DNA of 64,000 nucleotides, taken from Limnochordia bacterium. GTDB taxonomy: Bacteria; Bacillota; Limnochordia; DTU080. Location of the stretch: contig JBMNJG010000005.1 in the NCBI GenBank assembly GCA_050951545.1, positions 195,742 to 259,741 of the forward strand, in the 5' to 3' direction. Positions 17,201-22,226 of this stretch are shown here, one piece after another. Under the pieces are notes generated by a model that saw nothing but the letters and a program-made list of their open reading frames with translations, searched no databases and had not been told where the DNA came from. How positions within the stretch are numbered: position 1 is the stretch's first letter; each line of letters starts with the position of its first letter. A program made the translations under genes and the position numbers.

Positions 17201-17648
17201 CACGAACAAGCTGATCGAAACGAACCCCCCCTGTTACGGAGATAGCCTTGGTGGTTGGCCCCATAGACCCTGCTACAAAGCGAAGCTTGCCCGATGTGCT
17301 GTAGCGATCAGCCGCTTTTCGAGCGAGCCTGGCTGCTTCATAGGTAAGGGCGTAGGCTTGATCTGCGAGCTCGTACTCCGCCAAGACGAGGGAGCTGGAT
17401 CCGAAGCTGTTGGTCTCGATGATATCAGCGCCTGCCCGCAGATAGCCCTCATGGATGGCCAGGATCACATCGGAGCGAGTTCTGACCAAGTGCTCGTGGC
17501 ACCCCTCGTAGCGAGGGTCTCCAAAATCAGCGGCAGACAGGCCTCGTTGCTGAATCGCAGTGCCCATGGCCCCGTCGAGAACCAAGATCCGTTCCTGCAG
17601 CGCCCGACGAAAACGCTCGACCCGGTGATCCTGACTCGCCATGCTCAT
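14208..17648 (-). CDS. metH: Cobalamin-dependent methionine synthase
   Basis: 1146 aa with homocysteine S-methyltransferase barrel, pterin-binding, B12-binding (DxHxxG) and AdoMet activation domains. Start overlaps the upstream gene by 4 nt. Confidence 0.9.
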   Translation of the reverse strand: MSMASQDHRVERFRRALQERILVLDGAMGTAIQQRGLSAADFGDPRYEGCHEHLVRTRSDVILAIHEGYLRAGADIIETNSFGSSSLVLAEYELADQAYALTYEAARLARKAADRYSTSGKLRFVAGSMGPTTKAISVTGGVRFDQLVRAFREQARALVDGGVDYLLLETCQDTRNIKAGLVGIEQLSQEWGRPIPVAVSVTIEPGGTMLAGQDMEALITSLEHVDLLYLGLNCATGPEQMADHLRVMAERAAVAVACVPNAGMPDEDGHYGETPHHMARAVERFAQQGWLNVVGGCCGTTSEHIRALVETVSGYSPRTPKAITATFVSGIDNLEIGESNRPVLVGERANVIGSRQFRRLIHEAQYEEAAEVARRQERSGAQILDICVSDPDRDERQDMEALLSNVIRQVRAPLMIDSTDPRVIEPALTFCQGKAIINSVNLEAGERRIDEVVPLVRRYGAALVVGLIDEGGMAVSRQRKLEIALRAYEILVVKYGMRPTDIIMDPLVFPCATGDKEYVGSVRETIEGLRLIKKALPTCKTLLGISNVSFGLPPGAREVLNSVFLYECTEAGLDLAIVNTERLRRYASLSARERDLALKVLFCPDDETIGTFAAHYRDVRSTAPPTPQLSLDERLTRHVVEGSKNGLVDDLALKLEEASPLEIVNGPLMEGMNEVGRLFNRNELIVTEVLQSAEVMKAAVAYLESRIDQTALMTKGTVILATVQGDVHDIGKNLVEMVLGNSGYRIIDLGTKVAPAELVKAVREHQPDLIGLSGLLVRSAQQMVVTAEELTRAGLCPPMLVGGAALTQSFTHKRIAPAYGGLVAYASDVMHGLALANQIMDSDQRQVLVDQLVQEAAQLSPLGSREFTAAAPQQLSAVSMPSAVPEPADFDRHVLTAIDLDSVWGYMNPISLYNHHLGLKTPVHRAWAAQDERAHMLRALVEEVQAECRQGLMRASAVWQYFPAASRGDCLILYHPENGDVLAEWVFPRQHAKRGLCLADYTLPVTSDSRDSVCLFVVTAGHGIAREAERLKEQGDYLRSHVLQALAIETAEAAAEWLHARMRGWWGFPDDPALPTQRILQGHYRGRRYSFGHAACPDLALQKDLFRLLQPEEIGVELTETLMMDPAASISAIVFHHPQCVYFTVR

Positions 17649-19696
17649 TTGCCCACCTCATCGCCTGATGACCGTACGTGCTGACGAACCTGCTCCACGA
17701 ACGTGCAGATAGGCTCATGCTTGCCAAAAGAGAGCACCACGTAGATCCCGGCAATAAGCGAGCTGGCCTGCGTCACGAGTTCAGCGGCTTGCGTGAGGCC
17801 GACCCTGAGTCCATCGTCCCCGGCGAGTTCAAGCTCGCGGCGGATGGCCTCCGGCACAGTGATCCCGGGGACCTCATTGTGAAGGTAGACCGCATGCCTG
17901 TAGCTGTGGAGAGGCATCACTCCCAGCAAGATAGGCACATCGCAGCCCCCAATCTCATCCAAGACCCGATGCAACGGGGCCAGATCATAGACGGGTTGCG
18001 TCATCACAAACTGAGCCCCGGCTGCCAACTTCCGGCGAAAACGATCTGTCTCACGCGCCAGATCGTCAGCGTTCGGGTTCAGAGCACAGCCTACTGCGAA
18101 GTCCGTGGCCTGCCCAGTCGGGTTGCTAAGCAGGTCACGTCCAGCGTTGAGTTCGGTAAGCACACGGATAAGACCGATGGCGTCCACATCATATACCGGC
18201 GTTGCCTGCGTGACATTGCCCAACGATGGCGGATCGCCAGTCAACGCCAGTATATTGCGCAACCCCAAAGCATGGGCGCCCAGCAAATCGGATTGCAGCC
18301 CCATCAGATTGCGGTCCCGCGTTGTCAGATGCACAATGGTTTCCACGCCAACTCCATGCTCAATGAGATGCGCACTGGCCATGGCGCCCATCCGCACCCG
18401 GGCCATCGGACTATCTGCCACATTGATGCAGTCAACACTAGCAGCCTTGAGCGCTGTGGCAGCTTCGAGGAACTTCTTGGTCACCGAACCCTTGGGAGGA
18501 TCCAACTCGACACTGATGACAAACTCACGGCCTAGGTTGGCCCGCAACCCTCGATCAGCTGCCCGGGGAGTAGCTTCCGTAACCTCCTCCACAGGACGAA
18601 CCCGCGGGCGAAGAGGGCTCGTACCCTGACCAGCGGGGGCTGCCATCTTCCTCTCCAACTTGACGCTTGGCGATACGGCCTTCGACGCCCCGACTGCGTC
18701 GCCGTTGGTGCTGTTGGTTTGCCGCGCGTCGAGATACTCTCTCATGGCTGCGATGTGCTCCGGTGTCGTGCCGCAGCAGCCGCCAATCAAGCGTACACCC
18801 CGACTGATGAACCCCTCCATCATCGCTGCGAAGTACTCCGGTGTGGCTGAGTAGAGCACGCGGCCGTCTACGTATGCTGGCAGACCAGCGTTGGGCATGG
18901 CAGACCACATGACAGGGAACGTGATGCTTTCCTGCAGCGTCTCCAATGCCTCCACCACGTGGACAGGACCGCTGCTGCAGTTGACACCGATCACATCAGG
19001 GTAGGCCGCAGGATCCAAGTCGTTTAGGGCGGCCGCCACGCCCTGCGGCGTATACCCAGCGGCGGTGGCCTGCCTCACACCATTACCCAGACCCGGCAGA
19101 TTACGGGGAGCACCATCTGGCCAGAAGGCGAATTGCACAACGATGGGCAGTTTGGAGATCTCACGAGCAGCTCGAATGGCCTCACTCGCCTCCACGGGAT
19201 CTGCCATAGTCTCGATAACGAAAAGATCGACACCACCGGCAAGCAAAGCCTCCATCTGTTCTCGGAAAAGAGCGCGCATCTCTCGCCGTCCCATTGTGCC
19301 CGCTACGCCAATTGGTAAACCTAGAGAGCCCACTGATCCCGCCACCAGGGCGGCCTCACCAGCTATCTCGCGCGCTGCTCGAGCAATCTTAGCACCCCAC
19401 ACATTGATATCCCACACCCGCTCCTCCTGACCGCATTTCTGCAGTCTGATCCGGTTAGCACCATAGGTGTTGGTCTCAATCAAGGATGCTCCGGCCTGCA
19501 GATAGTCCAGATGCGCCTTCTGGACTATCTCCCGATCTGATAGATTCAGACACTCAAAGGATCTCGCCGCCCGGTCACCTCGCTCGTGAAGCAAGGAACC
19601 CATGCCGCCATCAGCCAACAAGACCTCCCCCTGCAGACGTGAGAGGAATGCGCGCACAGCGGAAGGGACATCCGCTCTGCCAGTAAGTGGAGCCAT
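17645..19696 (-). CDS. yitJ: Bifunctional homocysteine S-methyltransferase / 5,10-methylenetetrahydrofolate reductase (YitJ-like)
   Basis: N-terminal half is an Hcy S-methyltransferase barrel (GGCCGTTPEHI). C-terminal half is an MTHFR TIM barrel (FVISVELDPPKG...HLTTRD...ALTGDPP). Confidence 0.85.
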   Translation of the reverse strand: MAPLTGRADVPSAVRAFLSRLQGEVLLADGGMGSLLHERGDRAARSFECLNLSDREIVQKAHLDYLQAGASLIETNTYGANRIRLQKCGQEERVWDINVWGAKIARAAREIAGEAALVAGSVGSLGLPIGVAGTMGRREMRALFREQMEALLAGGVDLFVIETMADPVEASEAIRAAREISKLPIVVQFAFWPDGAPRNLPGLGNGVRQATAAGYTPQGVAAALNDLDPAAYPDVIGVNCSSGPVHVVEALETLQESITFPVMWSAMPNAGLPAYVDGRVLYSATPEYFAAMMEGFISRGVRLIGGCCGTTPEHIAAMREYLDARQTNSTNGDAVGASKAVSPSVKLERKMAAPAGQGTSPLRPRVRPVEEVTEATPRAADRGLRANLGREFVISVELDPPKGSVTKKFLEAATALKAASVDCINVADSPMARVRMGAMASAHLIEHGVGVETIVHLTTRDRNLMGLQSDLLGAHALGLRNILALTGDPPSLGNVTQATPVYDVDAIGLIRVLTELNAGRDLLSNPTGQATDFAVGCALNPNADDLARETDRFRRKLAAGAQFVMTQPVYDLAPLHRVLDEIGGCDVPILLGVMPLHSYRHAVYLHNEVPGITVPEAIRRELELAGDDGLRVGLTQAAELVTQASSLIAGIYVVLSFGKHEPICTFVEQVRQHVRSSGDEVGK

Positions 19697-19964
19697 CTCG
19701 CCAAATCCCTTCTAGTCTTACGGCTTCGTTCACAATGGAATCAGCCTGCGGATAATGATAATGATCAGCCAACTTCAACACCACAGCGGCGATCACCTTT
19801 TCCAGAGCACAGTAGCATCACCAAGAACGAACGTGACCATTCCATGGTGCCCCACAAGAGGCGCAGGGGGTGACCGACACCCGCAATGAGTGGGTTGACT
19901 GCTTCGGGAAGCTGGCCGAGCAGTCGGCTGCCAGCGAAACGCAGGTCTGAAGATCCGGGCAGAC

Positions 19965-20008
19965 AGAACCAGTGAGCATCGACCGCTTCTTACCGAATTG
20001 GGTGATGT
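19965..20008 (+). repeat. Single copy of the about 40-nt core (GCATCG..CTTCTT.CCGAATTGGGTGATGTAACCG) shared with the tandem repeats at 21558..21830
   Basis: Direct comparison with 21569..21608, 21677..21716 and 21781..21820. A downstream GGGCTAGCGC.G.CCTACCC block is also shared with 21860..21885. Confidence 0.6.
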
Positions 20009-20205
20009 AACCGGTGTGTGCACGGGTCTGCTTTGGCAGGACGGCACTGGTCACCGCTGCGGGCTAGCGCTGTCCTACCCAGATGCGCCCATCACGACCG
20101 GAAAACGTGCCATCGCGCCTCGCTTGGAAGAGCTCGGTGCACGCCGCCTCTGGTTTTGTCTGAATCGACCTTTTGGTGAAGGAACCCTACCGGAGAGTGT
20201 CGAAC

Positions 20206-21279
20206 ATGTATTCGGGACCCGAACAGACATTCTGGCTGGAGGTGGCACCCTTGGATATCGAAGAGGTTCGCGTGCCGATCTCGTTGCTGCTCACTAGCCA
20301 GTTAAGAGCGACGGATAAGGTAGTTTGGCTGGCTCTCACACTCGACGCTGAATTGGGGCAGCGAGCCCGTCTGTCGCCCACTCGCCTCGCTGCTCGTACC
20401 GGTTTGTCCCGACCCACCATCCGCAAGGCTACGGCAAAGCTAACCACTGAGGGCTGGTACAATCTGCCCACAGGCGTCAACCGGGCCCCAGCAAAAGGGC
20501 TGTCGGGGCCAAGGGTGGTCATGCCTACTGAGCTGATCATCGCCACGGAGGTCAGTGCTCAGGCCAAGGTGGTCTATGGTGCACTGCAGGCCACGCCGGA
20601 TTACCGTAATTTGCAGGGCGTGTTCACATATGCATCTGTGGCCCGGATGATGAGTCTAGACGCCAAGACGGTCAAGCGGGCCGCTCGACAGCTGGCCAAG
20701 CTGGGCTGGCTGGAGACGCAGCAGGAGCACAAGCAAGCTCCCATTTGCTTCAGCCTCTGCAACCCGGTCGCCCGCAGGTACATGGATGAACTGCTAGCGG
20801 CGCAGCAGCGACTCGACGAGGCTGAGTTCTTCGGACAGACCTTGATGCAGGAATACCTATCGGCTATTTTCGACTCCGATGACCATAAGGACAACGCGTC
20901 TCCCCGTTTTCTAGTCAACCCGGCTACTGGCATGTTACTGGAGCTCGACCGCCACTATGACCTCGAGGCCGTGGCCTTTGAGTTTAACGGGCCACAACAC
21001 TACACCCCTACCAAACGGTTCTCGGCTGACGTGGTCGCCAAGCAGATGGAACGTGACAAGACCAAGCGTGAATTGTGTGAGGAGAACAAAGTCACGTTGG
21101 TTGTGATCCATGCCAAGGACCTGTCCTGGCTCACCATGAAGTTCAAGGCTGGCCAACTGCTGCCGTTGCGAAGCGACCTTAACAAGAAACTCCTCAGGTA
21201 CCTCGATCTGAGGAGTCGCTTCTACCGCGAGACGGCTAAGGGTGGCTGGGCGCCCACCAGTGACGCCGCCAACGAATAG
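20206..21279 (+). CDS. Protein with two winged-helix DNA-binding domains and a C-terminal DUF559 (Vsr/PD-(D/E)XK endonuclease-like) domain
   Basis: C-terminal LELD...AFEFNGPQHY...ERDKTKRELCEENKVTLVVIHAKDL matches the DUF559 pattern (vEyDGeqH...rD.rr...L...GW.VvRv). Two wHTH blocks upstream. ATG at 20206 with GGAGAG SD; the ORF track starts at TTG 20173. Confidence 0.65.
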   Translation: MYSGPEQTFWLEVAPLDIEEVRVPISLLLTSQLRATDKVVWLALTLDAELGQRARLSPTRLAARTGLSRPTIRKATAKLTTEGWYNLPTGVNRAPAKGLSGPRVVMPTELIIATEVSAQAKVVYGALQATPDYRNLQGVFTYASVARMMSLDAKTVKRAARQLAKLGWLETQQEHKQAPICFSLCNPVARRYMDELLAAQQRLDEAEFFGQTLMQEYLSAIFDSDDHKDNASPRFLVNPATGMLLELDRHYDLEAVAFEFNGPQHYTPTKRFSADVVAKQMERDKTKRELCEENKVTLVVIHAKDLSWLTMKFKAGQLLPLRSDLNKKLLRYLDLRSRFYRETAKGGWAPTSDAANE

Positions 21280-21557
21280 CCAACGACGGCCAAGAGTGCG
21301 CTATAGCCTCGAATCATCTCTCCCCCTTCACCAAAAGGGGTCTCAGCAACCTCTCGCTGCCGCTCGCTGAAGCGGGTGCCCCTATGCCCTCGCCCAGGTG
21401 CCCTCGCGACGAGTCGTGACAATAGCAGACCCGTGGTGCGCCAACGGGCGCTGCGCTTCCTGCTGTAACCGCCTCGAAATCACAATGTTGCGCCCAATAG
21501 CCATCTTGCCTTGCCCAGAACCCGCCTCGTCGCCTGGTCCACTTCCTGTGATCGAAG

Positions 21558-21830
21558 ATGAAACTGGAGCATCGCCCTCTTCTTGCCGATTTGGGCAATG
21601 TAACCGACCCCGGGCCCCGACCCGGGCCCCGACTCACCAGCCGGGTCCGGGACTGACGGAAGTGAAACTGGAGCATCGCCCTCTTCTTGCCGATTTGGGC
21701 AATGTAACCGACCCCGGGCCCCGACCCGGGCCCCGACTCACCAGCCGGGTCCGCGACTGACGGAAGTGAAACCGAGTGGGCATCGCCCCCTTCTTGCCAA
21801 ATCAGGCGATGTAACCGACCTGTGTATCGC
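21558..21830. repeat. Tandem direct repeat, about 106-bp unit x 2.5 copies, containing GC palindromes (CCCCGGGCCCCGACCCGGGCCCC)
   Basis: Units 21558..21663 and 21664..21768 are nearly identical. A partial, diverged third unit at 21769..21830 continues into sequence similar to 20009..20100. Confidence 0.8.
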
Positions 21831-22009
21831 CCACGACGAGCCTGGGCATCGACACACGACGGGCTAGCGCGGCCCTACCCCGACCCAACTGATCACAGTC
21901 GGTGCAAACCCTAGCATGGAGGAAGACCACAGTCAGAATCCTAGTCATACTTGAAATGAACTGGTGGGGCCTTTCCAAAGGCGGCGCAACAGCGATACGC
22001 GAATTCTCG

Positions 22010-22060
22010 TCACCGTATTCGCCCGTATTCCCCCGTGTTCACGCCGACGAGTATTCGCGG
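22010..22060 (+). promoter_or_regulatory. Four direct GTATTCGC-like repeats immediately upstream of the tRNA-Arg promoter (possible upstream activating or factor-binding sites)
   Basis: cgtattcgc / cgtattccc / cgtgttcac / gtattcgcg spaced about 10 bp apart. Confidence 0.3.
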
Positions 22061-22090
22061 TTGCGTGGCTCGAGGGATAGTGCTATAATG
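22061..22090 (+). promoter_or_regulatory. Sigma-70-type promoter of tRNA-Arg (TTGCGT-17bp-TATAAT, extended -10 TGcTATAAT)
   Basis: Consensus hexamers at correct spacing about 12 nt upstream of the tRNA 5' end. Confidence 0.7.
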
Positions 22091-22102
22091 TGAAAGCGGT
22101 AG

Positions 22103-22179
22103 GCGCTCGTAGCTCAGCTGGATAGAGTGCTTGACTACGAATCAAGAGGCCAGAGGTTCGAGTCCTCTCGGGCGCACCA
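22103..22179 (+). tRNA. tRNA-Arg (anticodon ACG)
   Basis: Cloverleaf with 7-bp acceptor GCGCUCG/CGGGCGC, D-arm, anticodon loop CUACGAA, T-loop GGUUCGAGUCC and 3' CCA encoded. Followed by a hairpin at 22181..22226. Confidence 0.9.
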
Positions 22180-22180
22180 G

Positions 22181-22226
22181 CAAGAAACACCTCCACGAAG
22201 CGGTTTTCGGGAGGTGTTTCTTGTTT
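22181..22226 (+). terminator. Hairpin terminator after tRNA-Arg
   Basis: aagaaacacctcc-...-gggaggtgtttctt followed by gtttgtt. Confidence 0.6.

Follow-up and report, generated by a model that had tools for sequence, protein, structure and literature searches.

A tandem repeat array in a Limnochordia chromosome belongs to a repeat-bounded multicopy cassette with a homing-endonuclease-like gene

Introduction

Classical homing requires homologous flanks and, to our knowledge, homing endonuclease genes are thought to spread into cognate empty alleles only. A chromosomal, multicopy arrangement is represented by REP13E12 of Mycobacterium tuberculosis, a repeat of ~1.4 kb with a homing-endonuclease-like gene in each copy; the nuclease there is an HNH enzyme with DUF222, and we know of no terminal tandem arrays in REP13E12. 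I-Bth0305I, encoded in the recA intron of phage 0305phi8-36, acts as a homodimer, covers ~60 bp in footprints and has its highest specificity for a 14-bp pseudo-palindrome (PMC3239194). The SegB homing endonuclease drives unstable tandem segmental amplification beside its own gene, via double-strand breaks and recombination (PMC13096335).

Here we analyse a short tandem array in a 64-kb stretch of Limnochordia DNA, referred to throughout as the window. The array lies in a cassette of consistent anatomy, which occurs in multiple copies, in different genomic contexts and with polymorphic arrays, and which encloses a free-standing homing-endonuclease-like gene. We regard the array as probably, if with considerable reserve, a feature that operates at the level of DNA: a subterminal repeat that has multiplied within a selfish cassette, itself multicopy and of a kind undescribed before.

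Results

A tandem array was detected by TRF at 21554-21820, with a period of 104, 2.5 copies, 92% matches and a score of 435, in agreement with the sequence-only reading, which had also correctly noted the near-identity of units 1 and 2 (99%). The unit, given there as ~106 bp, measures 104 nt, and a solo hairpin placed at 19977-19992 actually lies ~13 nt away, at 19990-20005. The third copy, described as diverged, is not a short unit but a longer, 119-nt version of the repeat (21778-21896). The GC-rich block reported in the units is present and holds a 12-nt internal duplication, CCGACCCCGGGCC, which occurs in each window unit (21604-21633 and 21708-21737) and separates the 104-nt from the 94-nt unit type; the shorter type is found at the related loci L023, L035, L036 and L042, and the longer type in the window and again at L045. 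The core CTTCTTRCC-N6-GGYRATGTAACCG has four matches in the 64-kb window, starting at 19986, 21579, 21683 and 21790 and all on the + strand, compared with an expectation of 0 from shuffles. A second module, CGGGCTAGCGCNGNCCTACCC, is common to the third copy and the solo copy (20060 and 21860). Since neither 94 nor 104 is a multiple of 3, the array is non-coding, and a coding array was rejected on these periods. Exclusion of a CRISPR array was likewise correct, the units being head-to-tail, 92-99% identical and devoid of unique spacers.

The array is one part of a cassette of about 1.9 kb, extending in the window from ~19974 to ~21896 (Table 1), in which four repeat copies bracket a single gene (20206-21279). 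The layout starts with a ~120-nt terminal direct repeat, composed of an A box, a variable middle and a B module, and leads through a leader, the nuclease gene and a spacer into 2-4 shortened repeats, each made of an A box and an X module (94 or 104 nt), before a second full terminal repeat. In each context compared, the A box is the point at which homology starts. This A box occupies 19974-20014, with the hairpin TTACC-GAATTG-GGTGA at 19990-20005, and is followed by the variable middle, the B module CGGGCTAGCGCTGTCCTACCC (20060-20080) and an end in ...CATCAC; the ~20 nt upstream of the left repeat, from ~19950, show a weak likeness to an array-unit tail. The right terminal repeat contains an A box with the hairpin TTGCC-AAATCA-GGCGA (21794-21809), a middle, the B module (21860-21880) and the tail ...CTGATCAC. 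Its boundary at 21896 is sharp in two contexts, the window and L042 being 95% identical before this point and 57% identical beyond it. In the cassette alignment, flank columns are 100% variable, compared with 6.5% in the ORF. The middles of the left and right terminal repeats are very different, and the middle of long copies is swapped by indels between copies; 26 core positions are nevertheless common to both terminal repeats, as is the B module. A weak alignment also connects the short units with the long terminal repeat once the middle of the latter is left out.

Table 1. Positions of the cassette features and of the adjoining homology layer in the window
Feature	Coordinates	Strand	Remarks
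Left terminal direct repeat	19974..20095	+	the "solo copy" of the sequence-only reading; start of homology for five other cassette copies
Leader, left repeat to start codon	20096..20205	+	aligned in all copies; 20% variable columns
Gene, 357-aa protein	20206..21279	+	two winged-helix domains and a C-terminal Vsr/EDxHD-like nuclease domain
Non-coding spacer	21280..21566	+	90-93% identical among all cassette copies; 12.5% variable columns
Array unit 1	21567..21670	+	104 nt; A box, hairpin TTGCC-GATTTG-GGCAA (21583-21598), then GC-rich X module
Array unit 2	21671..21777	+	107 nt in this register; hairpin 21687-21702
Right terminal direct repeat	21778..21896	+	the "diverged third copy" of the sequence-only reading; 95% identical to the right end of L042
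Older diverged homology layer	21897..21993	+	past the sharp right boundary; element membership uncertain

The leader presumably has a promoter or 5' UTR role, and no consensus promoter was found in it (20096-20205). A sigma-70-like promoter, TTCACA-16-GATAAT (10/12), is located outside the cassette at 19729-19756 (+) and is directed into it. An alternative TTG start at 20173 would yield a protein of 368 aa. In the spacer, a stem-loop is present past the stop codon (~21322-21340) and at its 3' end the spacer runs into GATCGAAGATGAAACTG, part of a unit tail. A perfect 14-nt inverted repeat, CCTTTTGGTGAAGG / CCTTCACCAAAAGG, flanks the ORF at 20169-20182 and 21325-21338, in the window only; it was rejected as a terminal inverted repeat, as the other cassette copies carry CCCCCTTCACAGTAGGGG at the downstream position.

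The same layout of solo repeat, gene, spacer and array is observed, at 96-98% ORF identity, in six unrelated contexts, and ORF divergence between the copies is star-like. One of these loci, L023, was the single genuine match of a metagenome scan, and L024, L035, L036 and L042/L045 were obtained via protein-based look-ups. In the window the cassette lies between the metH operon, on the opposite strand, and tRNA-Arg(ACG), which has its own promoter and terminator. No Rfam riboswitch was detected, even at E<=10, in 19697-19970, the region upstream of the metH / MTHFR-fusion operon (17645-19696, minus). The left neighbour is an ABC ATPase in L023 and a Cys/Met-metabolism gene in L024, the cassette of L042/L045 stands between DUF421 and tRNA-Arg(CCG), and L035 and L036 provide further contexts. 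Across the six contexts the left flanks bear no relation to one another, and no duplication of the target was seen at the cassette junctions. A JGI contig, L017, contains the window locus at 99.8% identity with the array unchanged.

Array length and composition differ between copies of the cassette. The number of short units ranges from 2 to 4 per copy, their length is either 94 or 104 nt, and the right ends differ. L042 and L045 represent one locus in two samples, as their flanks are 98.9-99.8% identical and indel-free; their arrays are 119 gap columns apart, with the units of L045 belonging to the 104-nt type of the window.

The protein cluster at >=90% identity comprises 45 members, four of which have NCBI accessions in one block. 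Two of these four are on a 390-kb Limnochordia MAG contig which also carries the patatin gene of the window (100% identical), and at least four cassette copies appear to be present in one Limnochordia MAG. Probably, at least four of the six chromosomal sites belong to one genome, and all six to one population. Many metagenome contigs (L018-L022, L043, L044 and L046) end inside the cassette, at positions corresponding to window 20022, 20591, 20838 and 21018 or in the spacer, as would be expected of a repeat present in several copies, at which assemblies break. Metagenome contigs could also be chimeric across the 1.9-kb repeat, which counts against the reading preferred here.

A boxes are found only beside the cassette gene when a relaxed pattern, allowing <=7 substitutions, is applied to every related contig of the first set, and the strict core pattern revealed no additional cassette-type copies in the loci added afterwards. 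Across 185,579 species genomes the core motif gave 16 matches, all single, in coding sequence and with dissimilar flanks, which equals chance expectation. The two core-motif matches in viral contigs do not fit the stricter A-box pattern and were taken as chance.

A related species has no cassette, and no A or B module, at the orthologous site; MarR, ABC-transporter and RND-adaptor genes are found where the window has the cassette. A clean empty site is not seen in the nearest relative (patatin 79% identical), in which three other genes and an inverted tRNA are present. Relative to patatin, tRNA-Arg(ACG) and its promoter are inverted between the window (22053-22191) and the related loci L038 (9313-9450) and L037 (9672-9809). 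Two cassettes are positioned ~200 nt upstream of different tRNA-Arg genes, CCG in L042 (6987-7062) and ACG in the window (22103-22179). Between cassette and tRNA, both loci share an older stretch, window 21908-21993 and L042 6802-6887 being 72% similar over 87 nt (E 7e-6), and this layer is absent upstream of the orthologous tRNA in the related species. The proximity to tRNA-Arg and the older stretch may reflect a target preference or an older layer of insertion.

The encoded protein is homologous to phage nucleases in its C-terminal domain and its gene is under purifying selection. Pfam identifies HTH_36 and other helix-turn-helix domains only, and the AlphaFold model (pLDDT 90.8) consists of two winged helices and a C-terminal alpha/beta domain. 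In PHROGs, the N-terminal part matches families of replication initiators (phrog_8102 at 4e-9, phrog_391 and phrog_270), and the families matched by residues 256-307 bear annotations as homing, HNH or intron-encoded nucleases. A tblastn search against phages matched gp194, a "homing nuclease" of Bacillus phage 0305phi8-36, and hhalign of the nuclease domain with gp194 gave a probability of 98.7% and E 1.8e-16; the hhalign comparison with I-Bth0305I itself is weak (E 0.042, probability 1%). Invariant positions in 53 homologs are D248, E259, G262, H265, Q280, R283, D284 and K287; conservation of N261 is >=90%. D248, N261, H265 and D284 align with the I-Bth0305I active-site residues D196, N208, H213 and D222 (PMC3239194), and E259 aligns with a glutamate of that enzyme, E206 by alignment position. 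With the isolated domain, all Foldseek matches are weak (E > 0.4; TM 0.46-0.48 overall, including 1cw0_A at 0.48 and 3r3p_B at 0.47); the list includes Vsr, I-Bth0305I, PvuRts1I, TnsA and other restriction-fold nucleases. Sequence and profile searches of Pfam and PDB with the nuclease domain gave no match, nor did tblastn against 72,556 plasmids, and PADLOC gave no meaningful match. Variable sites of the ORF number 41 at the third codon position vs 16 and 13 at the other two, indicating purifying selection on the protein. A homolog that is 42% identical (P0007, contigs L025-L034) is found in one stable context with no flanking repeats, so that arrays do not accompany this gene family in general. 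A further homolog, P0005 (NCBI locus tag ACOX4G_04065), is 48% identical and shares the ACOX4G_ prefix, so that it apparently belongs to the same MAG as the multicopy family.

The A box consists of ~37 conserved bp centred on the pseudo-palindrome TTGCC-N6-GGCAA. Its non-pairing flanks (GCATCG, CTTCTT and ATGTAACC) are conserved at least as strongly as the stem and its loop varies freely, a pattern that fits sequence-specific recognition by a protein. The hairpin had been proposed to carry compensatory changes; this was not supported as evidence of selection. The third copy is altered on one arm only (U-A to U-G). Among 18 A-box copies from five loci (the window and four related ones), 98.9% of 90 cells are paired in the 5-bp stem TTGCC/GGCAA. 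TTGCC is retained as the left arm by 17/18 copies, the exception being the solo copy of the window, and the right arm drifts by transitions (GGCAA, GGCGA, GGTGA), with a double-sided change in one cell only, again in the solo copy of the window. Stem covariation is not significant, the observed score being reached by 232/500 shuffles, and an overlapping 8-bp stem, GCATCGCC/GGCGATGT, displays no covariation. RNAalifold folding of eight long copies returned an unfavourable covariation term of +0.56. Folding z-scores are -0.6 and -0.2 for the short units and -2.0 for the solo copy, and Rfam 15 detected only tRNAs, both over the whole window at the gathering threshold and locally at E<=10. A structured non-coding RNA, one of the options offered in the sequence-only reading, is thus without statistical support from covariation, Rfam or folding z-scores.

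Discussion

Of the options proposed for the array, protein-binding sites and the repeat of a mobile element came closest, and it is the notion of free-standing repeats that has to be abandoned, as these form the termini of a gene-bearing cassette and the array inside it. The A box most likely serves as the site that the cassette's own protein recognises, to bind it and perhaps to cut it, a proposal derived from the architecture of the box and from the way in which the related I-Bth0305I works. Repair of breaks or of stalled replication at A boxes would proceed through recombination, both among units and from one cassette copy to another, and such break-induced recombination could expand and contract the array. 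The same process would account for the changing number of units, for unit types shared between loci and for the high identity of the cassette interior. We infer that the protein acts on the A box and that this action drives array turnover, and likewise the route by which the cassette reaches new loci. The arrival of the cassette at unrelated sites does not fit classical homing, as the left flanks are not homologous; no target duplication was seen either, and this counts against the preferred reading. A more far-reaching reading, which we consider doubtful though worth entertaining, is that the cassette constitutes a new autonomous mobile element, in which the nuclease would serve as mobility enzyme on direct terminal repeats with the A-box array as the working end; as part of it, a homing-endonuclease lineage able to colonise unrelated chromosomal sites is equally tentative.

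The units might alternatively function as a structured RNA, in the 3' UTR or as a separate small RNA, acting as a stabiliser, a protein decoy or an antitoxin-like partner of the nuclease. Every copy is on the strand of the gene, a second GC-rich hairpin is possible in each unit, and the stem variants (GC, GU, AU, UA and UG) pair on the + strand only, at 98.9% vs ~77% on the other strand. This G-U compatibility, which would be predicted if the units act as RNA or single strands and which duplex binding does not require, is the sole hint for RNA or single-stranded DNA. The single double-sided change, a covariation score readily matched by shuffles, an 8-bp stem without covariation, the unfavourable RNAalifold term, ordinary folding energies of the short units and the lack of an Rfam match even at the permissive threshold all argue against an RNA, as do replacement of the long-copy middle by indels and the absence of a promoter or terminator signal around the array. 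In type III toxin-antitoxin systems of the ToxIN type, tandem RNA repeats lie upstream of an endoribonuclease toxin gene with a terminator between them, and the known repeats of this class are thus on the other side of the toxin gene from the array described here. We consider a role as RNA unlikely. A ToxIN-like system as such was rejected, the array being downstream of the gene, the protein being of a DNA-binding/nuclease type and PADLOC giving no match of note. As a practical caution, a hairpin that seems "compensated" among 3-4 copies does not, in a repeat this young, amount to evidence of an RNA gene.

At the level of DNA, a site-specific recombinase of the host, whether Xer/dif-like or of some other tyrosine type, could use the A boxes as core sites, the whole forming an integron-, IMEX- or pdif-like cassette array with the nuclease as cargo. 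Two 5-bp arms, inverted and set apart by a 6-bp spacer, recall such a core site, the sites are in direct orientation and part unequal "cassettes", namely X modules of 55-65 nt and a gene segment of 1.55 kb, and the left part of the left A box is more variable between contexts than its right part. ATGTAA also resembles what we take to be the XerD arm of Bacillus dif, at 7/11 matches, which is within chance. No recombinase gene adjoins any copy of the cassette, however, and spacers differ inside one array (GATTTG, AAATCA and AAATCG), which would block recombination between its A boxes; with the dif likeness at chance level and the integron attC signature absent, we find this reading rather improbable. 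An attC site is an imperfect palindrome bounded by paired R'' (RYYYAAC) and R' (GTTRRRY) core sites, and it was rejected here because ATGTAAC matches R'' at 6/7 positions but GTTRRRY, and indeed any GTT, is missing from the units. A MITE, which would have terminal inverted repeats, a target-site duplication, many dispersed copies and no coding capacity, was also rejected, as the repeats are direct, with no inverted termini, no target duplication and no copies seen away from the gene. That the array is a functionless minisatellite, produced by slippage or unequal crossing-over and flanking a duplicated gene, would agree with fast-changing arrays of near-identical units, but the A box is retained in old, diverged duplicates in which the 26 core positions and the B module are kept, and an array is present in every intact cassette; we hold this to be very unlikely. 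Iteron replicons have 17-22-bp iterons at a spacing of ~22 bp with an adjoining AT-rich region, in a plasmid or phage. The repeats could represent iterons of a small replicon or satellite integrated at several places, with the protein as replication initiator, given the similarity of the winged-helix domains to phage initiator families (phrog_8102, phrog_391 and phrog_270), their match to RepA_N-type initiator structures (4pql, 4pt7 and 5kbj) and the classical layout of tandem repeats adjoining an initiator gene with one copy upstream. Set against this are a spacing of 94-104 nt, where about 20-22 is usual for iterons, a region of 62-64% G+C with no AT-rich unwinding element, the failure to find a plasmid match by tblastn, all copies being chromosomal, and a nuclease domain left unexplained, and we regard such an origin as highly unlikely.

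The preferred reading, a selfish cassette whose subterminal repeat has multiplied, can be set beside the systems that it most resembles. The nuclease domain is homologous to gp194 and its catalytic residues align with those of I-Bth0305I, and the protein shares with EDxHD enzymes of this type an N-terminal helix-turn-helix DNA-binding region. In addition, the candidate site in the cassette is long and conserved and has a pseudo-palindrome at its centre, which is also the case for I-Bth0305I (PMC3239194). It differs from these enzymes in that its gene is in a bacterial chromosome, rather than in a phage, intron or intein, with no group I intron detected at the locus by Rfam, and in that its protein has two full winged-helix domains in place of NUMOD motifs. 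Moreover, the cassette is multicopy at unrelated loci, is bounded by direct repeats and includes a tandem array, and its cleavage activity is putative.

SegB of T-even phages offers a parallel in layout, as a free-standing homing endonuclease gene located by tRNA genes with unstable tandem repeats beside it (PMC13096335). However, SegB is a GIY-YIG enzyme of phages and its amplified unit includes the gene and a tRNA (PMC13096335), whereas the cassette has non-coding units of 94-104 nt in a bacterial chromosome and the role of the nuclease in their amplification is inferred. With an iteron module the cassette has in common an initiator-type winged-helix protein flanked by direct repeats, solo upstream and in an array on the other side; it departs from such a module in a unit that is five times longer, in the lack of an AT-rich region and plasmid context, and in the added nuclease domain. 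What is new is the setting of a free-standing homing-endonuclease-like gene inside an unusual, repeat-bounded multicopy cassette. A repeat-ended homing-endonuclease gene at six unrelated chromosomal sites would bridge homing and transposition, and the array would offer a natural system for nuclease-driven repeat expansion in bacteria.
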